Of a stretch of 64,000 nt of DNA, positions 6,828-53,882 are shown in pieces. The position numbers and the translations under genes were made by a program. This DNA comes from a virus, in IMG/VR virus record IMGVR_UViG_3300044638_004964, positions 1-64,000 of that record. The stretch is one strand, 5' to 3'. The stretch's first letter is position 1. Every line of letters begins with the position of its first letter. A model generated the notes under the pieces. The model saw only the letters and a list, made by a program, of their open reading frames with translations, was not told the DNA's origin and made no database searches.

Positions 6828-7108
6828 TGAAAATACAAACAACAGCAACATATGAGTATGATCTTGTGCGTACTTGTTTTGCTTGCCCAGAACAATACGA
6901 AGTATATGATAAAAATAATAAACGAGTTGGGTATCTCAGACTCAGACATGGAGAATTTACAGCGGAGTATCCATACTGTGGCGGGAAAACAGTTTATGAG
7001 TCGTATCCAGATGGAGATGGAATCTTTGAAGAATATGAAAGAATGTTTGAACTAACAAAAGCTATAGAAGCAATTCATGCACAGCTAGTTATAGATAATA
7101 AAATATGA
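6827..7108 (+). CDS. hypothetical phage protein
   Basis: TCFACPEQY...VGYLRLRHG; TAATG overlap. Confidence 0.6.
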   Translation: MKIQTTATYEYDLVRTCFACPEQYEVYDKNNKRVGYLRLRHGEFTAEYPYCGGKTVYESYPDGDGIFEEYERMFELTKAIEAIHAQLVIDNKI

Positions 7109-7262
7109 TAGCACAAGTTTCTATAGTTCGTCGCCCAATATGTCCGACATTTATTCATGATGACACAACAAGAATAATAGTATGTTTAATTGGATTAATT
7201 GTTTGCTGCACGATCTTTTACAAGATAGCAAAAAATTTTAATAAGTAATTGAAAGGAACAGT

Positions 7263-7505
7263 ATGTATATACCAAGTGTTGATGATCTTAGGAATATGGG
7301 ATATAAGGTGAAAGTTATTCATCAGAGAAATAAGGATAATGATGGCACAATCATGACAAAGGGTGGAAAAACAATTATTTTTATTACTGATGAACATGGG
7401 AATACTATTGAATCTCATGCAAGGTGTTCAAGTTTAGACGGTTTTAATAAGAAGCTTGGTATTAGAATTGCTATCGGGAGGGCTTTAAGTCAGATAAATA
7501 AATAA
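7263..7505 (+). CDS. hypothetical protein, paralog of 1276..1605
   Basis: AAGGA SD; shared motifs with 1276. Confidence 0.7.
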   Translation: MYIPSVDDLRNMGYKVKVIHQRNKDNDGTIMTKGGKTIIFITDEHGNTIESHARCSSLDGFNKKLGIRIAIGRALSQINK

Positions 7506-7555
7506 ATAGGTGTATTATAATTTAGGGACGAATATTCCTTAACATAGGAGTCTCT

Positions 7556-7897
7556 ATGAGTAAATCAAGTTTAACAACCGTGTTATTACTATCATGTTTA
7601 ATGTTTATGGCAAGTGTTCAAGCAAAAGATAATAGAAAAGTATTAATAGTATTTTCAGCATCTTGGTGCCAATCGTGCCAAATTGCTAAAAATGACATGG
7701 AAGTTGATGAGAATCTTGTAGAAACTTTGAAAAATTATGAGATCATCGAAGCGGATTATGATGTTGACAAAGACCTAGTACAAGGCTATAATATCAAAAC
7801 GATACCAACGTTTGTGGTATATAGCGGTGGAAAAGAAATTAAAAGAAAAGTTGGATATGACGGGAGAGCTAAAGGATTGAATAGCTTTCTCAAATAA
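7556..7897 (+). CDS. exported thioredoxin-like protein
   Basis: Signal peptide ending VQA; FSASWCQSC active site; IPT cis-Pro motif. Confidence 0.85.
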   Translation: MSKSSLTTVLLLSCLMFMASVQAKDNRKVLIVFSASWCQSCQIAKNDMEVDENLVETLKNYEIIEADYDVDKDLVQGYNIKTIPTFVVYSGGKEIKRKVGYDGRAKGLNSFLK

Positions 7898-7903
7898 GAA
7901 AGA

Positions 7904-8253
7904 GGGCCAGTAAAGGTATCGACAGGTAAAATAGATATAAACTGCATTAACTGGTTAATCGAATGGCCAGTATAAAAATCGATTAAAACTGTTAATTGGC
8001 GAAGTAACTCTCGCTCTCGCTGCCTAATTAATTAGGTAATGAGTGGGGCGGCATGAGCCTTATTACCAAATCATGCTGACGCAGATAATCTGATATGGTA
8101 GCCTTACCAGACATAAATAGGGATGATGATTGTACTCAATCTGACTCAGATAATTCTGATAGCTTTGTTAATTGTGCGATAACAACTAACTAATAATGTA
8201 GAAGTTTATATTGATGTTTATTCTGGACAGGGGTTCGACTCCCCTCTGGTCCA
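7904..8253 (+). ncRNA. ssrA: tmRNA, tag peptide (A)GEVTLALAA at 7998..8027
   Basis: 5' GGGCCAG...TCGAC; 3' GGACAGGGGTTCGACTCCCCTCTGGTCCA; acceptor stem with G3-U wobble (Ala identity); tag ORF ending LAA-stop. Confidence 0.92.
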
Positions 8254-8267
8254 CTGTTTTGGTTTGA

Positions 8268-8283
8268 ACCACATGGATGTGGT
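8268..8283 (+). promoter_or_regulatory. CsrA/RsmA-type hairpin ACCAC-ATGGAT-GTGGT
   Basis: Matches ACANGGAUGU with GGA in the loop, just upstream of the SD of ORF 8308. Confidence 0.4.
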
Positions 8284-8307
8284 ATAGTTTTTAACTTAGG
8301 AGAATTT

Positions 8308-8523
8308 ATGAAGACTTTTATTACATGTGTTGCTCTTTGTTTTTGTGTCAACGCCGCTAGTGCTGGCGAATGTGTTAATGGTAGCTGTAATCTTCGCAGC
8401 CGTACTGTTACCGTAGCCCGTGAGCTTATTAGTGTTCCTGTTGAGGTAACACGACGCACGGTGGAGGCTACACGAAATGTTGGTCGCCGCACGGTAGCTC
8501 GCGTTCGAAGCGTTGTTCGTTGA
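8308..8523 (+). CDS. small secreted Arg/Val-rich peptide
   Basis: AGGAG SD; signal peptide ending ASA; CVNGSC motif; Arg-rich C-terminus. Confidence 0.75.
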   Translation: MKTFITCVALCFCVNAASAGECVNGSCNLRSRTVTVARELISVPVEVTRRTVEATRNVGRRTVARVRSVVR

Positions 8524-8528
8524 TTCTA

Positions 8529-8603
8529 ATGTGGTTCTCACATAAAGGTTGAGATTAAATCTGACGCCGATTCCCCAATAAGGAAATAAAAGCAGAGCCA
8601 CGT
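8529..8603 (+). ncRNA. candidate three-way-junction RNA
   Basis: ATGTGGTTCT/AGAGCCACGT closing stem with two inner hairpins. Confidence 0.35.
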
Positions 8604-8675
8604 TCAAACTGGTACAATATGTCTGGAACCAAAGCTTAGGTATAACTTTTATGATTACTTACCGATAGTGAGGTA

Positions 8676-9095
8676 ATGATGTTTTATTGGGGTAGTTATC
8701 GACCTATACTGAGATTGATCAATCAATTGCGAAAAATGGATATGCGAACAATCCATCCAATAGCATTTAAATCCACGCTTGTTCGTAAAAAAGAGGGTAA
8801 CATGTCACTAGTTTATAATGTAACCGCTGGGCCAGTTGTAGATAACGATGTTGTCGAGCGTAGGCTAACAGTAACTGTTAATGGTGAAGTATCACAGGTA
8901 GCCACAAACTCAAATGATACTACTTCATTCGGAGAGTTTTCCTTTGCAGAAAATGACAACGTTGTTCTAACACTGGTTGACGTTGATGATGCTGGAAACG
9001 TAAGTTCCCCAGCAGTATTAGAGTTTACCGCTGCCGATACCATTCCTCCAGCAAAGCCGGGAGAATTTGGAGTAACTTTGGTACGAGAAGAGTAA
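8676..9095 (+). CDS. beta-rich (Ig/FN3-like) hypothetical protein
   Basis: GAGGT SD; VDDAGNVS and DTIPPAKP motifs typical of Ig-like domain ends; alternative start at 8802. Confidence 0.55.
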   Translation: MMFYWGSYRPILRLINQLRKMDMRTIHPIAFKSTLVRKKEGNMSLVYNVTAGPVVDNDVVERRLTVTVNGEVSQVATNSNDTTSFGEFSFAENDNVVLTLVDVDDAGNVSSPAVLEFTAADTIPPAKPGEFGVTLVREE

Positions 9096-9120
9096 AAAAG
9101 TCAATTTATTGGCACAGATA

Positions 9121-9153
9121 AGGGGATAGCCAATTGGCTATCCCTTTACTGTT
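9121..9153 (+). terminator. intrinsic terminator-like hairpin
   Basis: AGGGGATAGCC-AATT-GGCTATCCCTT followed by a short T-rich tract. Confidence 0.7.
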
Positions 9154-9212
9154 ATATGGAAAGGTGTATATAGTATTGGTAATTTCATAACTGGCACCGA
9201 AAGGATATCGCC

Positions 9213-9983
9213 ATGAAAAAGCTAATATTAATACTTTTCTGTCTATTTCTAGAGAATAATTTGATAGCTGGCACAATAGATCAAAACGTGCCAGATTCTA
9301 AATATGTTGAATATGGCGATAAGCATGAGTCAGTAGTAAAGCAAGAAGGAAATCACGACAACAAGGATAATACATATTTTTACGCATCAGCAGTAATTAT
9401 TAAACCTAGATGGTTATTAACCGCCGCCCACGTAATTAAAGGTAGTAAAAATTGTAGAATTGTTGTTGGTAAAAAAACTATACCAATAGACTTCATAAAG
9501 CATCACGCCTCATATGAAGAAAATAAATTTGGAAAATACGATATTGGAATAGGGCATTTAAAAGAAGATGCTGACATATCTTTTTATCCAGAATTATATA
9601 GTAAAAATGACGAAGTTGGTAAGATTTGTAGCATGGCTGGATATGGTATTACTGGAACATTTCAAAGCACAGAAAGAAAAGTAGACGATCTAAAAAGAGC
9701 GGGATCAAATATAATAGAAGCAACCGACAAAGACTTATTGATATGTTCTTTAAAGGATGGCCCAAGAACCAGTTTAGAATTCTTAATATGTCATGGTGAC
9801 AGTGGTGGTGGTTTATTCATAGATAAAAAACTAGCAGGAATAAATTCTTGTATTCTTACGGAAGATAAAAAATTAGATTCAAATATTAATGATTGGTCAG
9901 GACACACCAGAGTTAGTTTATTTATTGATTGGATAAAAGAGGTAATGGATACCATAGAAAAGGCAGAACAAGCCAAACCATGA
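9213..9983 (+). CDS. secreted trypsin-like (S1) serine protease
   Basis: Signal peptide; LLTAAHV, YDIG and GDSGGG catalytic triad motifs. Confidence 0.9.
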   Translation: MKKLILILFCLFLENNLIAGTIDQNVPDSKYVEYGDKHESVVKQEGNHDNKDNTYFYASAVIIKPRWLLTAAHVIKGSKNCRIVVGKKTIPIDFIKHHASYEENKFGKYDIGIGHLKEDADISFYPELYSKNDEVGKICSMAGYGITGTFQSTERKVDDLKRAGSNIIEATDKDLLICSLKDGPRTSLEFLICHGDSGGGLFIDKKLAGINSCILTEDKKLDSNINDWSGHTRVSLFIDWIKEVMDTIEKAEQAKP

Positions 9984-10303
9984 TTTTTCAAAAACTACTA
10001 CAGTATTTTTTCAGAACAGACGAATATGGTGCTAGGTCGCCACGATGGGCTATAATAAGGAGAGAGCATCTAGAAAATAATCCACGCTGTGCAGCATGTG
10101 GAAGAAATAAAAAGATAGAGGTTCATCATATAAAACCATTTCATTTAAATCCAGAATTAGAATTAGATCCAAATAATTTGATTTCTTTATGCGACGATCC
10201 TTGTCACTTTGTGTTTGGTCATTTAATGAATTATAGGAGTTGGAATACCAATGTTATCGAAGACTGTAAAAGATATCTTGACAGAATTAAAAATAGGCCA
10301 TAA
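9980..10303 (+). CDS. small HNH endonuclease
   Basis: CAAC, EVHHIKP, NLISLC, CH motifs; ATGA overlap start. Confidence 0.8.
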   Translation: MIFQKLLQYFFRTDEYGARSPRWAIIRREHLENNPRCAACGRNKKIEVHHIKPFHLNPELELDPNNLISLCDDPCHFVFGHLMNYRSWNTNVIEDCKRYLDRIKNRP

Positions 10304-10427
10304 ATTTTATATAGTATTGAGTATACAGGGTTTTTGTTTAGGATATATGATTGGATTTTTAATGTCTTATTTTGAAATTCTATAACTTGCTATTGACAAA
10401 ATTGACTTGGTGGGCTATCATAGTTAG

Positions 10428-10721
10428 ATGCAAGCTCACCCAAAAGAAAAATTGAACATGTTAGACTTAAGAGAATACAACAAAGCTCCCTCTAGTTATT
10501 TAGAGGATAAGCAAAAAATTAAAAAATTGATATCAGATGTTGGTTATAAACATCTTCTTGAATATCTTATCGAAGATATAGATAACTATGAAATCCTTGG
10601 TCACGATGACTTATGGATATTAAGGATGGCAGAAAGTCTAGAAGATGCTTACAATGTATTTATGCAAAAGTATAAGGACGAAGACAACATAGATAGTAGG
10701 ATAACACCAAATGAGAATTGA
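10428..10721 (+). CDS. hypothetical protein
   Basis: ORF track; TTGACA upstream at 10393. Confidence 0.5.
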   Translation: MQAHPKEKLNMLDLREYNKAPSSYLEDKQKIKKLISDVGYKHLLEYLIEDIDNYEILGHDDLWILRMAESLEDAYNVFMQKYKDEDNIDSRITPNEN

Positions 10722-11067
10722 TCATGCATTAAATGTTAAGGTTGGAGATCATCTAATGAATACATTCTTGGATGATGTTGTTGTAACCAGTATATACAAA
10801 GAAGGTGGAGTCATTGTGTTTGGCACAATCGACACAAGACTAAGACAAGTAGCTTACTCTTATGATTATGTATACTTAGTCGATATTGGTCCAAATGATA
10901 TTTCTGATGAAGAATCTAGTTTTATAAATTGGGCTAGAGAAAATAGAGAAAGCATAGAAGAACAGTTAGAAAATCTAGATTTAATAAAACGGTCTTATAT
11001 GCAGGGGTTTGGCATGGGCTATGCTTACAAAAAAATAATGTCCCATGAGGAGTTAATGCAGAAATGA
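10711..11067 (+). CDS. hypothetical protein
   Basis: ORF track; overlaps thyX start. Confidence 0.55.
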   Translation: MRIDHALNVKVGDHLMNTFLDDVVVTSIYKEGGVIVFGTIDTRLRQVAYSYDYVYLVDIGPNDISDEESSFINWARENRESIEEQLENLDLIKRSYMQGFGMGYAYKKIMSHEELMQK

Positions 11068-11720
11068 GCTATGTAAAATTAATCAGCATTACCGCAGACT
11101 GCGAAAAACTAATGGCATACTGTGCTAGAGTCTCAAATCCAAGCGGACAAAATAATGACAGTATTGCAAAACTCTTAAAGTATTGCATCGCTCATGAACA
11201 TTGGAGTATTTTTGAGCAGGGCTTTATGACAGTAGAGATTAATACTACAAGAGGTATTGCCGCACAGATTCTTCGTCATCGTAGTTTTACGTTTCAAGAG
11301 TTTAGCCAAAGGTATGCTGACGCTACGCTTTTATCAGAGGATATTCCACTTTTTGAATTAAGGCGACAAGACAACAAGAATCGCCAGAATAGCATAGATG
11401 ATATATCTAATGAGACTAAAGTAAAATGGAATGCTCAAATTCGTGAACATTTTTCTAAAGCCAAGGCTATTTATGATGGCATGATTGCTGATGGAATAGC
11501 TAAAGAGTGTGCAAGATTTGTATTACCATTAGCTGTTCCAACAAGATTATATGTTAGCGGTTCAATAAGATCATGGATTACATATATAGCATTAAGAGAA
11601 AAGCACGGTACTCAAAAAGAACACATTGATATTGCTAAAGGCTGCAAAAATATATTTTGCCAGCAATTACCATTAACTTCTGAAGCTTTGGGAGGGTTTG
11701 AAAAAGAATGGTGTATATAA
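11064..11720 (+). CDS. thyX: flavin-dependent thymidylate synthase
   Basis: RHRSFTFQEFSQRY signature; HWSIFE; KECARFVLP. Confidence 0.96.
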   Translation: MSYVKLISITADCEKLMAYCARVSNPSGQNNDSIAKLLKYCIAHEHWSIFEQGFMTVEINTTRGIAAQILRHRSFTFQEFSQRYADATLLSEDIPLFELRRQDNKNRQNSIDDISNETKVKWNAQIREHFSKAKAIYDGMIADGIAKECARFVLPLAVPTRLYVSGSIRSWITYIALREKHGTQKEHIDIAKGCKNIFCQQLPLTSEALGGFEKEWCI

Positions 11721-11761
11721 GAATGTATACTATACATATATACATTCTAGGAGACACTATT

Positions 11762-12364
11762 ATGCCAAGGAATAAAAGTCTAAAAATAGGTGATATTATA
11801 GGTTATGATAATTTAGAAGTAATAAATACAAAAACTATAATAGAAGGTAAAACTCAAACAAAACGTGCATGGTCTGAAGTTTATTGTAGATTGTGCGGAA
11901 AAAAGAAATGGATGAGAAACAACATCTTAAAAAGAGAAAGAACTTCAAGTTGCGGATGTGCTTCCAGAGATTCTAAAACATGGAAAATAAAAAAAGATAG
12001 GAATATGACTTGGCAGTTAGATCAAGGAGAATCAGCATTCAATAATTTATATTATCAGTATCTTAAAAGTGCAGAAAAAAGAAATTTATCTTTCGCATTA
12101 TCAAAAATAGAGTTTAAACAATTTACAAAAAATCCATGCTATTATTGCGGGAGAGAACCTCATAGAATAATAAAAGGTCAAGGTAAAACTAGTGGAGATT
12201 ATGTATACAACGGTTTAGACAGAATCGATAATAACGATGGGTACAATTTAGATAATATTGTTAGTTGTTGTTTTGATTGTAATTCTAGCAAAAGAACATT
12301 TTCGCAAAAAGATTTTTTTGCACATGTAAAACGAATCTATGATTTACATCATGAAAAAATGTAA
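11762..12364 (+). CDS. HNH-like homing endonuclease
   Basis: CRLCG...SSCGC N-domain; CYYCG, GLDRIDN, NIVSCCFDCN; GGAG SD before ATG 11762. Confidence 0.8.
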   Translation: MPRNKSLKIGDIIGYDNLEVINTKTIIEGKTQTKRAWSEVYCRLCGKKKWMRNNILKRERTSSCGCASRDSKTWKIKKDRNMTWQLDQGESAFNNLYYQYLKSAEKRNLSFALSKIEFKQFTKNPCYYCGREPHRIIKGQGKTSGDYVYNGLDRIDNNDGYNLDNIVSCCFDCNSSKRTFSQKDFFAHVKRIYDLHHEKM

Positions 12365-45195: not shown

Positions 45196-46218
45196 ATGCT
45201 AATAACATACATAAGATCTTCAAGTTATAATAATTATTCTTACTGCCAAATGCAGTATTTTATAACATATGTTTTGGGCCATCAGTCAACCAGCGGCAAG
45301 AAAGCAGAACTTGGAACTATTGTTCACAAGGTTATGGAAACACTAGCTGGTTTTAAAAAGTATCACCAAGACAATCCACGTAAACATAACCTATATGTAA
45401 AAGATGATGCCTTGGGCGATGTTGAAATTAAAAAATCAGAATTATTGAAGGACAGTATCGTTGTAGACTTACTTGATAAAAGCTATAATTTTTATACATC
45501 TGGATCATCTCACGCTTTTACAAAGGGTGATAAAGATACCTGTATGGGTCTTGTGTGGGACACATTAAGATATAATCATGGTCAATTTGACCCAAGACAC
45601 AGAACTGTAGTTGCCCCAGAACCTCATTTTGATATTCCAATTGATGAAGATTGGGCGCATTATGAATATGAGTTTCCAGATGGTAGAAAAATCAAGGGAC
45701 AATTAGCTATTAAGGGAACTATAGATCTAGTTACAGAAACAGCTAAAGACACTATTGAAGTAGTCGATTGGAAGACGGGTAGACGTTTAGATTGGGCCAC
45801 TGGCGAAGAAAAGACATATGAAAAACTATGCTCAGACCCTCAGTTATTACTATACAATTATGCCATTTCGAAGCTATTTCCTCATTATGACCACACGATA
45901 ATGTCTATATTTTTTATTAAAGATGGTGGACCTTTCTCTATGTGTTTTGACAAAGCAGATCATGGTAGATTCTTAAAAATGCTTAAGAATAAGTTTGAAG
46001 ATATCAAGGCGAATAATACACCAAAACCCCTGTCACAAAGTAGAGATAGCTGGAAATGTACTAAGTTGTGCCATTTTTACAAAAACAACTGGCCGGGAAC
46101 AGACAAAAACATGTGTATATACATAGAGAATCACCTAAAGGACGAAGGTATGGAGAATACCCTTAAAAAGTGTACAAGAGAAGGTTTTGACATTGGTTTT
46201 TATTCCGCTCCCGGTTGA
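45196..46218 (+). CDS. Cas4/AddB-like PD-(D/E)XK exonuclease
   Basis: N-terminal Cys, GTIVH, GTIDL, VVDWKTG, QLLLY, three C-terminal Cys. Confidence 0.8.
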   Translation: MLITYIRSSSYNNYSYCQMQYFITYVLGHQSTSGKKAELGTIVHKVMETLAGFKKYHQDNPRKHNLYVKDDALGDVEIKKSELLKDSIVVDLLDKSYNFYTSGSSHAFTKGDKDTCMGLVWDTLRYNHGQFDPRHRTVVAPEPHFDIPIDEDWAHYEYEFPDGRKIKGQLAIKGTIDLVTETAKDTIEVVDWKTGRRLDWATGEEKTYEKLCSDPQLLLYNYAISKLFPHYDHTIMSIFFIKDGGPFSMCFDKADHGRFLKMLKNKFEDIKANNTPKPLSQSRDSWKCTKLCHFYKNNWPGTDKNMCIYIENHLKDEGMENTLKKCTREGFDIGFYSAPG

Positions 46219-47087: not shown

Positions 47088-47990
47088 ATGCCCATTCCAA
47101 ATAGACGAAAAGATGAAGATAAGAATAAATTTGTTGCCAGATGTATGGGTGACAAGGTTATGAAAAAAGATTATCCAAGCAATAGCCAAAGAGTTGCTAT
47201 CTGCTTGGATCAAGCAACAGCCGATTGTGACTGTGTAGAAGCTGCTGATTTTAAAATGCAATTAGAAAATTATGGCTATGAAGAAGATGTTAATGATGAC
47301 AATTTTTATATTCCAACACAGGCAGAATATGAAGACTTTGGCGAAGAAACAGAAGAGTGGGATATTGCTGAAGCAAAACCGGGACTATGGGAAAATATAA
47401 GAAAGAAGAAAGATCGATTAGGCAAAAAATATAAACCAGCAAAGCCGGGAGATCCAGATCGCCCAGATAAAGATGCTTGGAAAAAAGCTCAGTCTGGTGA
47501 TAGCGAAATGGCTATTGATCAAATAATGAAAATGAGCGATCAGATCATGGAAGTGGTTGCTAGACTAAAAACTATGCAGATACCAGTAGAATTTCAAGAT
47601 TGGACAAAAGACATGATTTCCAAAGCTGAAATCTATATACAGAACGTGTATGACTTTGTTAAGTATTACGAGCCGGGTAAATATGAAGATGAGTATACAA
47701 AAGAAGTAGATGAGCCATCAGAAATGGAAACTGAAGATTCTTATGCTTCAGAATATCAAGGTCGCAAAGTGACATTAAATAAACCATTTAGAACATCAAA
47801 TGGCCCAAAGAAGTTTGCAGTATATGTTAAGAATGAAAGTGGCAACGTTGTTATTGTTAGATTTGGCGATCCAAATATGACAATCAAGAAGAATATTCCA
47901 GAACGACGAAAAAGCTTTAGAGCTAGACACAACTGTGAGAACCCCGGCCCAAAATGGAAGGCTAGATATTGGGCTTGTAAAAGCTGGTAG
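47088..47990 (+). CDS. modular phage protein with basic modules and acidic linkers
   Basis: FVARCM..QRVAIC; KPGLWENIRKKK; EYQGRKVTLNKP...RFGDP...RRKSFRARHNC...ARYWAC. Confidence 0.65.
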   Translation: MPIPNRRKDEDKNKFVARCMGDKVMKKDYPSNSQRVAICLDQATADCDCVEAADFKMQLENYGYEEDVNDDNFYIPTQAEYEDFGEETEEWDIAEAKPGLWENIRKKKDRLGKKYKPAKPGDPDRPDKDAWKKAQSGDSEMAIDQIMKMSDQIMEVVARLKTMQIPVEFQDWTKDMISKAEIYIQNVYDFVKYYEPGKYEDEYTKEVDEPSEMETEDSYASEYQGRKVTLNKPFRTSNGPKKFAVYVKNESGNVVIVRFGDPNMTIKKNIPERRKSFRARHNCENPGPKWKARYWACKSW

Positions 47991-48068
47991 TTGAAGTAAA
48001 GTTGTTGGTTCGGCGGTATAATAGTTTGATAGCAGTCGCATACACATTGAAATTGACAAGGACAATAT

Positions 48069-49673
48069 ATGTTGAATTGGTGCCCACTAAGGAATTACAC
48101 TCATTACAGTTTATTGAGGGGTTTTTCAAAGCCAGACGAGTTAGCAGCAAAGTGTAAAGAAGAAGGATATACTGCTTGCGGTATTGCTGATTATAAGACA
48201 ATATCTGGGGTTGTATCTTTTTATCAAGCTTGTCAAAAGAATGGGATAAAACCTATCATTGGTTGCTCATTTGATGACTGCGCTTTGTTTGCTAAGAATA
48301 GTGCCGGTTGGCATGATCTTATTCACCTAGTATCATCTATAGATGATGAAGGTAATATATCTAGCACTATTTGGTCAAACACTCTAAAGAAGGGCAATGT
48401 AATAAAGGTGTCTAATGATGCCTCACTATTTCCCATTAGTTATTATGTTAAAAAAGAAGATGCGACATTGCATCGTATACTATTATGCTCTGAATTAAAA
48501 ACCACACTTCCAAAGATTCAGAAACAAATACGCAATGGTGATCTACCAAAAGATATAGAATATCAATTTACTCACGACGATAAAAACGTTTGGTCAAAGG
48601 AAGAGGCACAAAAAGCAATTAGCTCAACATCATCCAAAAATCTAGATAATATTTCTAGTATTATAAATGAGTGTGAGAGCTATAATATTCTAAGCAAGCC
48701 CAATCTTCCAAAGTTCGCTTGTCCAAATAATCAATCAGAAGAGGATTATTTGAAGGAACTATGTCGCGTTGGCTGGAAAAATATATTAATAGATGGTGAT
48801 AAGGTTTCTAAACCAGAAGATAAAGAAAAGTATCTAGAAAGATTCAAGGAGGAATTTGATGTTATTAAGGGTGCTAATCTATTCGGTTATTTCCTCATTG
48901 TTAGAGACATTATACACTATTGCGAAAGTCAAGGTTGGTTGTGTGGTCCCGGTAGAGGTTCAGCGGCTGGATGCCTAATCTCATATCTTATTGGAATCAC
49001 AAAGATTGATCCAATAGAATTTGACCTACTGTTTGCTAGATTTTATAATGCTGGGCGAAATAGTGAGGACCATATCTCACTTCCAGATATTGATATGGAC
49101 GTTCCCGGCAAGAAGCGTGACGAAGTTATATCTTATCTTAAGAATAAATATGGTCATGATCACGTTAGTCAAATGATTTCGTTTGGTAGGCTACAGGGAA
49201 GAAGTGCTATAAAAGAAGTTTTACGCATAAATGAAGCGTGTTCTTTTGGTGAAATGAACACTATAACAAAGAGTATTCCTAACGAAGCTGAAATTTCTGA
49301 CCAACTTGCCGACATGGATGACGATAATAGATCTATTATACGTTGGGCACTAATTAATAATGCCAATGAATTAAGGGATTTTTGCCACATAAACGAAGAT
49401 GGTAAGCTAGAAGGAAATTATGCTGAGTATTTTGATCAAGCTATAAAGATTGAGGGAACATTTAAAACACAGGGAAAACACGCCGCCGGTGTTGTTATAT
49501 CAGCTAAGAAATTGAATACCGTTTGCCCGATGGTTAAGCAGCGTGATTCATCTGAAAAGATTGCGGGATTAGAAATGGCAGACCTAGAAGCTCTAGGACA
49601 TGTCAAGTTTGACGTTCTAGGAATTAATTTACTAGATAAAATTATGATGATACAAGACTTAACTGGAGTATAA
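48069..49673 (+). CDS. dnaE: DNA polymerase III alpha, N-terminal half (PHP, palm, thumb)
   Basis: KPIIG, GPGRGSAAGCL, PDIDMD, GKHAAGVVI, KFDVLG. Confidence 0.93.
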   Translation: MLNWCPLRNYTHYSLLRGFSKPDELAAKCKEEGYTACGIADYKTISGVVSFYQACQKNGIKPIIGCSFDDCALFAKNSAGWHDLIHLVSSIDDEGNISSTIWSNTLKKGNVIKVSNDASLFPISYYVKKEDATLHRILLCSELKTTLPKIQKQIRNGDLPKDIEYQFTHDDKNVWSKEEAQKAISSTSSKNLDNISSIINECESYNILSKPNLPKFACPNNQSEEDYLKELCRVGWKNILIDGDKVSKPEDKEKYLERFKEEFDVIKGANLFGYFLIVRDIIHYCESQGWLCGPGRGSAAGCLISYLIGITKIDPIEFDLLFARFYNAGRNSEDHISLPDIDMDVPGKKRDEVISYLKNKYGHDHVSQMISFGRLQGRSAIKEVLRINEACSFGEMNTITKSIPNEAEISDQLADMDDDNRSIIRWALINNANELRDFCHINEDGKLEGNYAEYFDQAIKIEGTFKTQGKHAAGVVISAKKLNTVCPMVKQRDSSEKIAGLEMADLEALGHVKFDVLGINLLDKIMMIQDLTGV

Positions 49674-49674
49674 A

Positions 49675-50280
49675 ATGGCCACTCAGTGTGGAAAATATAT
49701 TGGTCAAAAATTTGGAATGTTAACTGTTCAAAAAATTACTAGTAAAACCAAAAAATCTCATTATAGGGCCGAATGTTTGTGTGATTGTGGTAATACTGTT
49801 ATACGCCGCATAGATTCTCTAGTACACGATAAATCAAAAAGTTGTGGGTGTTCAGCATTCAAAACAGGGTGCGAACATGCCTTATATAGAGGATACGAAG
49901 GTTTGAGCCTGAGACGCTGGTCTAAAATCAAAACAATGGCAAAAGATCGTGGATATAATGTCAAAATAGATATTAAATATGTCTGGGATTTGTATGAAAA
50001 ACAGGGAAGAAAATGTGCGATAACTGGAGTTCCCATTATCTTCTCTAAACAAAACAAAGACAATGTTGGCACAACAGCATCTTTAGATAGGATAGATAAT
50101 AATAGAGATTATATTGAAGGAAACGTACAGTGGGTGCATAAACGTATAAACATAATGAAAGGTAATATGAATACAAATGAATTTTTAAATATTTGCGAGG
50201 CTGTAGTTGCAAAAAATAAAGAAGAAGATATATTTGAGACACCAGTACACTATACAAGAAAGATGTTTTATGGCAAATAG
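49675..50280 (+). CDS. HNH-like homing endonuclease
   Basis: CLCDCG...SCGC; KCAITG; ASLDRIDNNRDY...NVQWVHKRIN. Confidence 0.8.
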   Translation: MATQCGKYIGQKFGMLTVQKITSKTKKSHYRAECLCDCGNTVIRRIDSLVHDKSKSCGCSAFKTGCEHALYRGYEGLSLRRWSKIKTMAKDRGYNVKIDIKYVWDLYEKQGRKCAITGVPIIFSKQNKDNVGTTASLDRIDNNRDYIEGNVQWVHKRINIMKGNMNTNEFLNICEAVVAKNKEEDIFETPVHYTRKMFYGK

Positions 50281-50950
50281 AGATTATATTATATTCGACT
50301 TTGAAACAGGCTCAAGAAATCCTCACAAAACCCAACCAACTCAGATTGCAGCAATAGCTCTAGATGGTAGAAACTTATCAGTTAAGGGACAATTTAATAG
50401 TGAAATCAAGCCCATATTTGACGATGAAGAGGCTATATCTCTTGGGCTAGATCCACTTCAAGATGAAGCTTTAAAGATAACTGGAAAAACTAGAGAGGCT
50501 CTAGCTGAAGCTCCCTCAATTAAATCAGTATGGTCTAAATTTGTAAAGTTTGTTGATCAATATAATTGGAAGGGTGATCCATTTTTTGCTCCAATTCCAG
50601 TTGGATTTAATATCCTTGGTTTCGATATGCACATTGTTAATAGGCTATGTAGAGAATATGGTCCTTGGGATAAAGAGCGAGAACAACAAAAACTATTTAG
50701 TAAAGTCTATAAAGTTGATATCATGGACAATGTTTTCGTATGGACAGAAAGTGATCCATCAGTTAAGTCTATTAGCATGGATTCGCTACGAGAAAGAATG
50801 GGTCTTAGCAAGGAAAATGCTCACGATGCTCTACAGGACGTTAAGGACGAGGCCAATATATTTATCAAGCTCATGAAAACCCATAGATCTGTTTATCAGA
50901 ATATTACTTTTGATAAAGCTTTTGCTAATGGTGGACTGTATGTTAAATAA
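50270..50950 (+). CDS. dnaQ: DEDDh 3'-5' exonuclease (Pol III epsilon-like)
   Basis: FDFETG, GFNILGFD, HDALQD. Confidence 0.88.
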   Translation: MANRDYIIFDFETGSRNPHKTQPTQIAAIALDGRNLSVKGQFNSEIKPIFDDEEAISLGLDPLQDEALKITGKTREALAEAPSIKSVWSKFVKFVDQYNWKGDPFFAPIPVGFNILGFDMHIVNRLCREYGPWDKEREQQKLFSKVYKVDIMDNVFVWTESDPSVKSISMDSLRERMGLSKENAHDALQDVKDEANIFIKLMKTHRSVYQNITFDKAFANGGLYVK

Positions 50951-51308
50951 AGTTTGCAACAAGTGTAAAAAGGAATTACCAATTGAACATTTTAGCAAAC
51001 ATAGCGGCAGCAATTATTTAAGACCAGAATGTAAATCTTGCAATAATTTGCTAAGTAAAATACGAAGCAGTCTCAGGAAAAAGCATGAAACCCCTCCAGA
51101 AAATTATCAATGTCCAATTTGCAATAGAAGCGAGCATGAGATATCTTCTGGTGGAGGAAATAAAAAAAGCAAGTGGGTGCTAGACCACAATCACCAAAAT
51201 AATAATTTTAGGGGATGGTTATGTCACACATGTAATATGGGTATAGGTTCTTTTTCTGATAATATTGATACATTGTACAAAGCTATAGAGTATTTAAAAA
51301 ATGATTGA
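50940..51308 (+). CDS. endonuclease VII-type nuclease
   Basis: CNKC...CKSC; CPIC; LDHNH...RGWLCHTCN.GIG.F.D....L..AIEYL. Confidence 0.85.
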   Translation: MLNKVCNKCKKELPIEHFSKHSGSNYLRPECKSCNNLLSKIRSSLRKKHETPPENYQCPICNRSEHEISSGGGNKKSKWVLDHNHQNNNFRGWLCHTCNMGIGSFSDNIDTLYKAIEYLKND

Positions 51309-52863
51309 CTACAACGACAAGAAGACTTGGCAATTATTTGCAGAAGGTAAAACTAAGGGTATCTTTCAGTTAGAAAGTAATCTTGGTAAGGCTTGGGCTA
51401 AAAAAGTTGCTCCAACAAATATTGAAGAATTATCTGCTCTTATTGCTATTATTAGACCGGGAACGTTAAAAGCTTTCGTTGATGGAAAGTCTATGACCCA
51501 GCATTACGTTGACAGAAAGCACGGCAGAGAAGAGGTTGTATATTTGCATGAATCTCTGGAAGAAATCTTAAAGCCAACGTATGGGGTTCTAGTTTATCAA
51601 GAGCAGTCCATGCGTATAGCTCAAAAGGTCGCTGGCTTCAATCTACAAGAGGCCGACGTTCTTCGTAAGGCCATTGGAAAGAAAAAGGCTGACCTCATGA
51701 ATGAAGTTAAGAAATCATTTATTGAGGGGTCACAGCGAGTTGGAATGGTAACAAAGGAAGAAGCGGAACAGATTTTCGGATGGATTGAGAAGTCTGCACG
51801 ATATGCTTTCAATAAATCCCACAGTATATCTTATGCCGTATGCTCATATTGGAGTGCCTATTATAAAGCCCACAATACTCCAGAATTCTTTTTATCGTAT
51901 CTGTATTATGCTAATGAAAAGCAAGATCCACACCAAGAAGTTTATGAACTTATTTCTGAAGCAAAGCTATTTGATATACAGGTAAGAACACCTAGTCTTG
52001 CCAATTTCGATACAAAATTTAACTTTAGACATGGGAAGATATACTTTGGGATTAAGGATATCAAATCTCTCACTGGTAAAACTGGCGATAAATTGATAGA
52101 AGCGGTCGAAGAATCAGAAAAGCTTGCTGGTAAAAAAATTACTAAATTCTCATGGTTAGAGTTATTGATATATTTTAGCCCCAATATAAGTTCCACTTCT
52201 TTTAAAGCTTTAGCCTCAATTGGTTTTTATAGAGACTTTGCAGAAAAGATTAGTAGAAATAAAGCGCTGTATGATTATGATATATTTAAGAATTTAACAC
52301 AGGCTGAGAAAACTTGGGTTTTAACTCAATACCCGACTAAAAAGTGGTCAACATTTATGGATTGTTTGAAGGATTTGGCACCAACTAAAAAAGAAGGTGG
52401 TGGAACTAGCAAAGCCGATAGAAGACAATTTATAGAGAATGAACTACAATTATTAATAAATCCACCATACGACTTGGAGGATGAACCAAGCTGGTTAATA
52501 GATCAAGAAATTAAATTCTTAGGCTGTCCAGTTACAATGACTAAAATTGAAACATCCGATACTTCCGCAGCTAATACAACATGTAAAGATGTTGTTAACG
52601 GAAAAAAGGGTAAGGACTTGTGCATAGTTGCCAATGTCCAAAGAGTTTCGGATTATAAAATAACAAAGGGTGAATCAAAAGGCCAAATGATGTCATTTCT
52701 AACAATAGAAGATGATTCATGTATCCTTGATAGCGTTATAGTATTTCCAAAAGTTAGAGATAAGTACAAATATGTGCTTTACGAAGGAAATAATCTAATT
52801 TTCTGTGGGAATGTAGCCGACCACGACTCGTCCTTTATAGTGAACCAAATTCATGAGATTTGA
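51301..52863 (+). CDS. dnaE: DNA polymerase III alpha, C-terminal half (fingers, HhH, OB)
   Basis: GIFQLES, IIRPG, TYGVLVYQEQ, ADVLRKAIGKK, YAFNKSHS, C-terminal OB fold. Confidence 0.93.
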   Translation: MIDYNDKKTWQLFAEGKTKGIFQLESNLGKAWAKKVAPTNIEELSALIAIIRPGTLKAFVDGKSMTQHYVDRKHGREEVVYLHESLEEILKPTYGVLVYQEQSMRIAQKVAGFNLQEADVLRKAIGKKKADLMNEVKKSFIEGSQRVGMVTKEEAEQIFGWIEKSARYAFNKSHSISYAVCSYWSAYYKAHNTPEFFLSYLYYANEKQDPHQEVYELISEAKLFDIQVRTPSLANFDTKFNFRHGKIYFGIKDIKSLTGKTGDKLIEAVEESEKLAGKKITKFSWLELLIYFSPNISSTSFKALASIGFYRDFAEKISRNKALYDYDIFKNLTQAEKTWVLTQYPTKKWSTFMDCLKDLAPTKKEGGGTSKADRRQFIENELQLLINPPYDLEDEPSWLIDQEIKFLGCPVTMTKIETSDTSAANTTCKDVVNGKKGKDLCIVANVQRVSDYKITKGESKGQMMSFLTIEDDSCILDSVIVFPKVRDKYKYVLYEGNNLIFCGNVADHDSSFIVNQIHEI

Positions 52864-52914
52864 TGTGTTTTTTCAGCCTGTACCTGCTAATATACAAAGA
52901 TAGGAGATCAATAG

Positions 52915-53226
52915 ATGAATATATGTTGTTTTACTGGATATTTGCTAGAAGACCCTCGCATATCCGACATTGATGGTGTTACTCTTGCGGAATTTGTCAT
53001 GGTTGTCTATACTTATAGAAAAACCAAGAGTGGAGAAAAGAACAGAATACCAACATATGTTAGATGCGAAGCTTGGCATACTGGTGCTGAAACACTAGAA
53101 AAATATGCCACCAAGGGAACTAAGCTAAATGTTCACGCTTCTGCCAAGAATGTTTCAAAAGAAGATCAAAGAGTTTTGTTTAGAATTAACGAATTCGACT
53201 TTTGTAATCAAGACTTTGAAGACTAA
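52915..53226 (+). CDS. second SSB-like OB-fold protein
   Basis: FTGYLLEDP, CEAWHTGAE, TKGTKL. Confidence 0.7.
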   Translation: MNICCFTGYLLEDPRISDIDGVTLAEFVMVVYTYRKTKSGEKNRIPTYVRCEAWHTGAETLEKYATKGTKLNVHASAKNVSKEDQRVLFRINEFDFCNQDFED

Positions 53227-53882
53227 TGACCATACCAAATAATATTCTTTTAACTTGGAAAGATCGTCAAATTCCAAATTATGTTATTAGCAATATTACA
53301 AAAATCAATCCTAATATAAATATTAGCTTCTTCGATGATAATGATATTAAGAATTTTCTTGAAAGTCATTACGGAAGAAACTATGTGGATTTTTTTAATT
53401 CAATAAAGCTTGGTTATAACAAGGGCGATTTCTTTCGATATTGTTATCTATATAAATATGGTGGATATTATTTTGATATTGATATAGAACATGTTTTACC
53501 AATTTCTGAAATAGTGGATAAAGATACAACATTTTTTAGTATTATATCAGCATTACTTCCGGGACACATATTTCAAGCAATATTATTCTGTGAACCAAAT
53601 CATTTAATTATCAAAAAATGTATAGATGACATGTTTAAGTTTGGCCCAAATCCTCCAATAACTTCATCGTATATTGGTCACACAACAACTTGTATGTTTA
53701 ATAATATAGGATCTTTTTTAGAAGATGTTCCAAGAGAGGGTATCTTCACTAGCAATAAAGAAAAAATATGTTTGGGAAAAGAACGTATGTATAATAGTAG
53801 ATACGTATGTACTTATCAAAATAAAATAATAGCCTTTTCAAGATACAAAAACTATAATAGAGAAATGGGATTTTTAGAATGA
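53226..53882 (+). CDS. glycosyltransferase GT32 (Och1/DXD type)
   Basis: IPNNILLTW, GDFFRYCYLYKYGGYYFDID. Confidence 0.85.
   Translation: MTIPNNILLTWKDRQIPNYVISNITKINPNINISFFDDNDIKNFLESHYGRNYVDFFNSIKLGYNKGDFFRYCYLYKYGGYYFDIDIEHVLPISEIVDKDTTFFSIISALLPGHIFQAILFCEPNHLIIKKCIDDMFKFGPNPPITSSYIGHTTTCMFNNIGSFLEDVPREGIFTSNKEKICLGKERMYNSRYVCTYQNKIIAFSRYKNYNREMGFLE

Follow-up and report, generated by a model that had tools for sequence, protein, structure and literature searches.

A DnaE-type DNA polymerase encoded by two intein-less genes that flank an exonuclease gene in an uncultured aquatic phage

Replicative C-family DNA polymerases are treated as single large chains. In Escherichia coli, the core of DNA polymerase III (Pol III) consists of the alpha subunit DnaE, the epsilon subunit DnaQ and theta, and epsilon binds the PHP domain of alpha via a C-terminal segment and raises fidelity. 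Here we describe a locus from an uncultured aquatic phage in which DnaE is encoded by two genes, dnaE-N and dnaE-C (products N and C), with the gene of a DEDDh 3'-5' exonuclease (Exo) nested between them. The locus lies in what we call the window, a stretch of 64,000 nucleotides that corresponds to positions 1-64,000 of IMG/VR record IMGVR_UViG_3300044638_004964 (full record 105,961 bp, estimated to be 67% complete). We propose that the replicase of this phage is probably the product of a conserved three-cistron cassette, whose separate N, Exo and C chains would form a non-covalent complex, a Pol III-alpha-like polymerase that carries an exonuclease.

Several described systems resemble this arrangement in part. 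Like the E. coli Pol III core, the locus encodes a C-family polymerase with the palm Asp triad, fingers, HhH and OB regions, an inactive PHP and a separate DEDDh 3'-5' exonuclease chain. Unlike that core, the phage alpha is two chains, broken in the loop that joins palm to fingers; the phage exonuclease gene sits between the two halves, not elsewhere in the genome, and is not a dnaQ equivalog; the PHP of the window is short by ~100 residues; a tau-binding C-terminal domain is lacking; and complete relatives yielded no clamp gene. PolC of Firmicutes also has a DEDDh exonuclease placed 'inside' the coding sequence of a C-family polymerase. In PolC, however, the exonuclease is an in-frame domain within the PHP of a single chain, whereas the phage exonuclease has a gene of its own, in a different frame and placed between the parts that code for palm and fingers.

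Split phage enzymes that lack inteins have been described, namely gp43A/gp43B of Aeromonas phages 25 and 44RR, the mobE-split NrdA of phage Aeh1, and T4 gp39/60, and the Aeromonas gp43A/gp43B and Aeh1 NrdA halves co-purify and are active (PMC2988022). As in gp43A/B and Aeh1 NrdA, an essential phage replication enzyme is here divided into two intein-less cistrons, with a homing endonuclease gene (HEG) at the break in only some genomes. Unlike gp43A/B, which belong to family B, the present enzyme belongs to family C, breaks between palm and fingers and has a conserved Exo nested in it; the arrangement is ancient and occurs across hundreds of uncultured phages. The cyanobacterial split DnaE and metagenomic fractured genes involve a split intein and a free-standing HEG (Dassa et al. 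2009, PMC2677866). Our locus likewise comprises two genes, with HEGs between the halves as in fractured-gene loci, but it has no intein at the N|C break, the break site is another one, and the halves cannot be ligated. Finally, group 2.2 jumbo phages carry a minimal split Pol III alpha (Iyer et al. 2021, PMC7824862), in which the C-family catalytic module also takes the form of stand-alone N- and C-terminal proteins predicted to reconstitute the enzyme. Those modules are minimal, lie in distant loci and stand beside a family B replicase, while here the halves are adjacent to each other and to the exonuclease, and form a near full-length enzyme that, judging from complete relatives, is the only polymerase.

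Our literature search, whose coverage mostly excluded subscription journals, did turn up split-intein DnaE, fractured genes, split gp43/NrdA and the minimal jumbo-phage Pol III, and found no paper on a near full-length DnaE broken between palm and fingers with a nested exonuclease gene.

Two halves that make up a whole DnaE

N has two Pfam matches: PHP at residues 7-96, which is partial (profile positions 2-100 of 164), and DNA_pol3_alpha (PF07733) at 227-518, which covers the whole profile (2-260 of 260, E 2e-69). The three catalytic aspartates, D340, D342 and D515 (motifs PDIDMD and KFD), all lie in N and are invariant in alignment A1; the protein ends in ...KFDVLGINLLDKIMMIQDLTGV*. C starts at MIDYNDKKTW..GIFQLES and matches DNA_pol3_finger (PF17657) at 2-146 (E 8e-49), while its HHH_6 match is weak. 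The C-terminus of C is OB-like, with a weak match to E. coli alpha 983-1059, and the OB strand pattern is visible in the AlphaFold2 (AF2) model of the unsplit relative P0123. When aligned to E. coli alpha, N runs from ~8 to ~564 and then extends for 10 more residues (to ~574), and C aligns with 590-852. The break therefore falls at ~575|588 of E. coli alpha, and N and C between them make up a whole DnaE.

The unsplit phage relatives P0121-P0123 (1052 aa, 54% identical) allowed us to place the break more closely. In the alignment with them, the end of N and the start of C fall within one or two columns, so that no residues were lost or added at the break. The AF2 model of P0123, which has a predicted local distance difference test score (pLDDT) of 90.6, puts the break in loop 533-542. 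This loop is flanked by helices 521-532 and 543-551, with the helix after the KFDILG strand on one side and the first finger helix on the other. By this model, the break site is a surface loop joining palm and fingers. Together, N and C are a whole C-family DNA polymerase of the DnaE type (Pol III alpha); in place of one polypeptide of about 1000-1200 aa, there are two open reading frames (ORFs), in different frames and 1.6 kb apart.

The space between the halves is filled with genes. The stop codon of N (49671-49673) is separated by one base from the ATG of an HNH endonuclease gene (49675), whose own stop (50278-50280) overlaps the ATG of Exo by 11 nt. The start codon of Exo is the ATG at 50270 (MANRDY..., conserved in orthologues), not 50267. 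Its stop (50948-50950) overlaps the ATG of an EndoVII-like gene (50940) by 11 nt, and the stop of the latter (51306-51308) overlaps the ATG of dnaE-C (51301) by 8 nt. With genes 1 nt apart or overlapping by 8-11 nt, there is no non-coding space for a ribozyme core, and a search for Rfam families, introns included, gave no match at E<=1 over 47500-53500. No intein domain was found in a Pfam scan of the cassette proteins, and there is no recoding signal at the break. The initial annotation of this stretch, made without database searches, had described halves of 534 and 520 aa with these domains, endonuclease and exonuclease genes abutting or overlapping between them, the absence of an intein and of an intron core, and a break at the palm-fingers linker that leaves YAFNKSHS uninterrupted in C. 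Each of these points held against the ORFs, the Pfam and Rfam scans, the E. coli alignment and the P0123 model.

The PHP of the window has lost ~100 residues together with the HxH histidines, and reads LRNYTHYS in place of LHxHxH. The split layout occurs both in shortened-PHP lineages, such as that of the window, and in full-PHP lineages with HxH. Since all four combinations of PHP state and layout occur, we rule out that Exo became nested because the PHP degenerated; loss of the PHP and splitting of the gene vary independently of each other. The difference in the PHP region is apparent when window 48069-48450 is set against L130:6001-6700, as split relatives with a full PHP retain LHLHTHYS.

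Conservation of the cassette and turnover of its junction genes

We collected 170+ loci from viral and metagenome contigs, 122 of which span the whole cassette region. The same split, whose presence in related phages the initial annotation had named as a check, was found in them: the order N-Exo-C is present at 112 of the 122 spanning loci, with N-halves 48-95% identical to that of the window, and the stand-alone N-half homologues among the matches listed (120 of 120) all measure 515-557 aa. DnaE is in one piece at 10 of the 122 loci, and there an orthologous Exo (44-60% identical) precedes dnaE and adjoins its start (for example Exo 7042-7722 and DnaE 7722-10874 at L089); at the one-piece loci L101 and L102, HEGs lie between Exo and dnaE. 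The single-stranded DNA-binding protein (SSB) gene is next to dnaE-C in nearly all loci that reach that far, and no SSB match was found at the one-piece loci L089-L091. Among cultured phages, tblastn with N, C and Exo as queries returned nothing above 33% identity in 50,697 phage records, and viral-contig scans queried with P0123, alignment A2 and P0134 gave no matches.

We next consider selection. Against six relatives, the ratio of nonsynonymous to synonymous substitution rates (dN/dS) was 0.04-0.10 for N, 0.01-0.06 for Exo and 0.03-0.08 for C, versus 0.30-0.34 for the HNH gene and 0.27 for the EndoVII-like gene, all of these values being approximate because dS is near saturation (0.8 to >2). 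Purifying selection acts strongly on N, Exo and C but not on the homing endonucleases; the relaxed selection that would mark a decaying gene was not seen in the three cistrons.

The genes at the junctions between N and Exo (J1) and between Exo and C (J2) come and go. The HNH gene is present at J1 in only 3 of the 8 closest loci, with other genes or none there in other relatives, and the EndoVII-like family occupies J2 at 17 loci and is missing from most. The EndoVII-like gene of the window starts with the MLN codons that form the start of C in endonuclease-free relatives, and ends overlapping the new start of C. Such promoter-less cassette behavior has been described for the T4 seg and mob genes (PMC2988022). 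Elsewhere the junctions carry HNH, EndoVII-like, FkbM and TylF methyltransferase, glycosyltransferase, uracil-DNA glycosylase (UDG), DUF4326 or unknown genes, or none. Because the genes found there differ and are unrelated, fusion, splicing, bypass or read-through across the junctions cannot be required. The HNH and EndoVII-like genes are sporadic selfish invaders, later arrivals that stand outside the polymerase machine. As to cargo in detail, examples are found at L149:8139-8720, L023:8623-9294, L135:8780-9547, L041:9226-9936 and L080:8633-8881; the UDG is family-4-like and the glycosyltransferase GT34-like, and all of this cargo is placed between essential replicase cistrons.

We also considered homing endonucleases as the cause of the split. 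The window does contain HEGs and one-piece relatives do exist, yet most split relatives have no HEG, many having neither endonuclease, and the break always holds Exo; causation by HEGs is therefore not supported.

The cistrons overlap in compact loci, with the ATG of Exo 8-11 nt ahead of the stop codon of N, the ATG of C 11-20 nt ahead of the stop codon of Exo, and AGGAG-like motifs 5' of the overlapping starts. This arrangement of motifs and start/stop overlaps suggests coupled translation.

Mobile elements of several kinds concentrate in the DnaE of this phage group. At L088 (9479-13112), DnaE-C is broken further: an in-frame HNH-containing intein sits at IRPG|C, and a true split-intein break at YSFNK|..|SHS shows the fractured-gene layout, with IntN after FNK, a free-standing gene (11098-11985) for a homing endonuclease of 295 aa, and IntC ending ...SN before SHS. 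Intein-less and split-intein breaks thus coexist within one gene. In-gene insertions of ~1.2 kb occur in one-piece relatives (L103:8397-9668 and L108:7176-8319), and intein Pfam domains are present in the database homologues P0125, P0132, P0139, P0140 and P0151. L004:8001-12206, compared with window 48069-52863, is a mosaic (N 79% identical, Exo 97%, C 94%), which points to exchange or recombination at J1, where the window carries the HNH gene.

Proposed assembly of the replicase and competing explanations

Our model suggests that dnaE-N (inactive PHP, palm and thumb), the DEDDh exonuclease and dnaE-C (fingers, HhH and OB) would be translated individually from a shared message. Where relatives lack the endonucleases, this translation is probably coupled via the 8-20 nt start/stop overlaps with internal Shine-Dalgarno sequences, and the products would then come together through non-covalent contacts as a Pol III-alpha-like polymerase bearing a 3'-5' exonuclease. 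Since the 10-residue loop with the break comes just after the helix following the KFDxLG catalytic strand, each half could fold alone and re-pack along the palm/fingers interface. In the window, promoter-less free-standing HEGs have invaded both junctions, the HNH gene at N|Exo and the EndoVII-like gene at Exo|C, with the overlapping start/stop layout preserved. The initial annotation had arrived at a three-chain, non-covalent replicase of alpha-N, epsilon and alpha-C. Its core is well supported by the conservation across 112 loci, the purifying selection and the arbitrary nature of the junction genes, and the comparative evidence bears out separate, intein-less N, C and Exo; the naming of Exo as epsilon goes beyond what is established.

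The split DnaE would also be the only DNA polymerase of the phage, a conclusion that rests on complete relatives. The record of the window has one DnaE copy, and no family A or B polymerase was found in it or in five relatives that are 93-100% complete (154-174 kb). The beta-clamp N-domain (PF00712) was likewise absent from the record and from the five near-complete relatives (G001-G005, the records of L021, L085, L068, L057 and L088), so the split polymerase presumably uses a host clamp or an unrecognized processivity factor.

The DEDDh pentad of Exo itself (motifs FDFET, GFD and HDALQD) does not vary among 30 orthologues. Its C-terminal tail, F(E/D)KAFAxGxLY, is kept in both layouts, and the AF2 model (pLDDT 93.8) and the fold search confirm the fold. 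We infer that it is the proofreader of the split polymerase from its constant linkage to dnaE and from the dead PHP in the lineage of the window. Several points weigh against the proposed replicase. Exo reaches 28.2 bits against the dnaQ model TIGR01406 (cut-off 222.7) and 24.7 against PRK05711 (cut-off 196), and its best NCBIfam match is to '3'-5' exonuclease', at 38 bits versus a cut-off of 189. The fold search does not favor epsilon over other DEDDh enzymes, since Foldseek matched the DnaQ domain, ExoI, RNase T, DinG-exo and PolC-exo with similar scores, and ERI-type enzymes also. The dN/dS values are only as good as the near-saturated dS allows, the claim to be the only polymerase leans on the relatives because the record of the window is ~67% complete, and the association of N with C, their activity, the coupled translation and the proofreading were all deduced from gene comparison. 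Exo is a generic DEDDh exonuclease, and its identity as epsilon/DnaQ is not established.

These same scores leave room for a reading in which N and C form a split polymerase but the nested DEDDh protein is another nuclease that shares the operon, with a role in recombination, RNA processing, host DNA degradation or anti-defense. Its standing as a generic DEDDh member, beside ExoI, RNase T, DinG-exo and ERI-type enzymes as much as beside the DnaQ and PolC domains, would fit, and full-PHP lineages, which retain the PHP HxH, might proofread with that domain. We consider this unlikely, as Exo abuts or sits inside dnaE at all 122 spanning loci, in both layouts and across deep divergence; its tree is congruent with that of the polymerase; the PHP of the window, with its histidines and ~100 residues gone, leaves no other proofreader; and the conserved tail of Exo suggests a docking peptide. 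A proofreader attached to the split polymerase thus remains our preferred role for Exo.

Much less probable is that a single alpha chain is restored from the halves, whether by protein trans-splicing, RNA splicing, ribosomal bypass or frameshifting. Precedents exist for such events: T4 gene 60 is an example of ribosomal bypass, relatives such as L088 carry inteins elsewhere in DnaE, and DnaE is the classic split-intein host in cyanobacteria and metagenomic fractured genes (PMC2677866). At the break described here, however, the ends have no intein motifs, with the real split intein of L088 as a contrast, and the lack of intein domains and of residues beyond those of unsplit relatives led us to reject an intein, just as the empty Rfam scan of 47500-53500 at E<=1 led us to reject an intron. 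The gap between N and C, 0.7-2.7 kb long, holds a conserved, selected gene together with unrelated cargo that varies among loci, and the unrelated 0.2-1 kb genes at the junctions of many loci rule out fusion by frameshift or read-through. The possibility to which we give the least weight is that the split is a recent HEG-insertion lesion or an assembly artefact, the gene decaying while host Pol III replicates the phage. Two endonuclease genes do sit exactly at the junctions of the window, but the break is shared by dozens of relatives whose two junctions both lack an endonuclease (for example L008, L017, L018, L037 and L059). A pseudogene or misassembly is ruled out by the presence of the split on >100 independent contigs, with intact ORFs and dN/dS of at most 0.1.

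It appears that aquatic phages of 150-175 kb, a large group with a global distribution, replicate with a non-covalent, two-piece alpha and a co-encoded exonuclease. If confirmed, the palm/fingers loop would be a site at which Pol III alpha naturally tolerates a split, of use in structure-function studies and protein engineering, and the stoichiometry of polymerase and proofreader would be settable by gene order. The group offers a natural series, from one-piece to three-piece to three-piece with inteins, for comparing a gene break, HEGs, inteins and 'moron' cargo in one essential gene. In practice, annotation pipelines call the halves 'PHP domain-containing protein' or partial DnaE, and they may be taken for pseudogenes.

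Changes of layout and genomic setting

On the polymerase tree rooted with bacterial DnaE, at least 2 changes of layout are needed. Forcing all split rows together made the tree 35 log-likelihood units worse (approximately unbiased (AU) test, p=0.017), a test weakened by the fact that the group was named after the tree had been seen. Judged from this tree, the layout changed repeatedly, by fission or re-fusion. The congruence of the Exo and polymerase trees indicates that the cassette was inherited as a unit, and leaves unsupported the alternative that horizontal spread of a nested Exo by homing explains the polyphyletic split.

An ORF of 71-96 aa is always found directly upstream of Exo, nested or not, in the full-PHP lineages and in L094-L097, and is absent from the clade and the record of the window. 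In split loci it lies between N and Exo and in one-piece loci 5' of Exo (L130:7907-8134, L094:2986-3216, L101:3968-4174 and L103:5088-5294); it has no Pfam match and no informative Atlas match. Its product may be a small subunit of the replicase, or the ORF may be what is left of an endonuclease. As the small ORF is always beside Exo in these lineages, the mobile block would be [small ORF-Exo]. A more speculative idea, which we put forward tentatively and with some doubt, is that the cassette acts as an evolutionary toggle, having passed between [small ORF]-Exo-DnaE and N-[small ORF]-Exo-C at one loop more than once. The nested layout would persist as a PolC-like enzyme with the 'exonuclease in middle', made from separate chains, in which ordered, coupled translation would load the proofreader onto the assembling polymerase, and the small ORF might elsewhere supply a theta-like fourth subunit. 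If this were true, it would imply recurrent gene fission, or the genuine re-fusion of a split essential gene.

Every gene within 44-56 kb of the window is on the + strand, and the features of the cassette and its flanks are listed in Table 1. Upstream of the cassette lies a replication module comprising ribonucleotide reductase (RNR), PhoH, a RecA-like protein, DnaB, primase, dNMP kinase and the PD-(D/E)XK nuclease.

Table 1. Positions in the window of the cassette genes and of their kept neighbors
Feature	Position	Strand	Description
PD-(D/E)XK nuclease gene	45196..46218	+	Pfam PF12705; kept upstream neighbor of the cassette (synteny); directly adjoins dnaE-N in some relatives
dnaE-N, 534 aa	48069..49673	+	Shortened, degenerate PHP, palm and thumb, three catalytic Asp; Pfam PF02811, PF07733
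HNH-type free-standing homing endonuclease gene	49675..50280	+	Junction J1 (N|Exo); PHROG 3322/374 HNH endonuclease
DEDDh 3'-5' exonuclease gene (Exo), 226 aa	50270..50950	+	Putative proofreader; Pfam RNase_T
EndoVII-like (HNH-superfamily) free-standing homing endonuclease gene	50940..51308	+	Junction J2 (Exo|C); Pfam PF02945
dnaE-C, 520 aa	51301..52863	+	Fingers, HhH/beta-binding region, OB fold; Pfam PF17657
SSB gene	52915..53226	+	Pfam PF00436; constant neighbor 3' of the cassette

Just 5' of dnaE-N, at 47088-47990, the window encodes a 300-aa protein with no Pfam or NCBIfam match. It has acidic linkers and a basic C-terminal module, and it occupies the same place in the eight closest relatives (61-88%).

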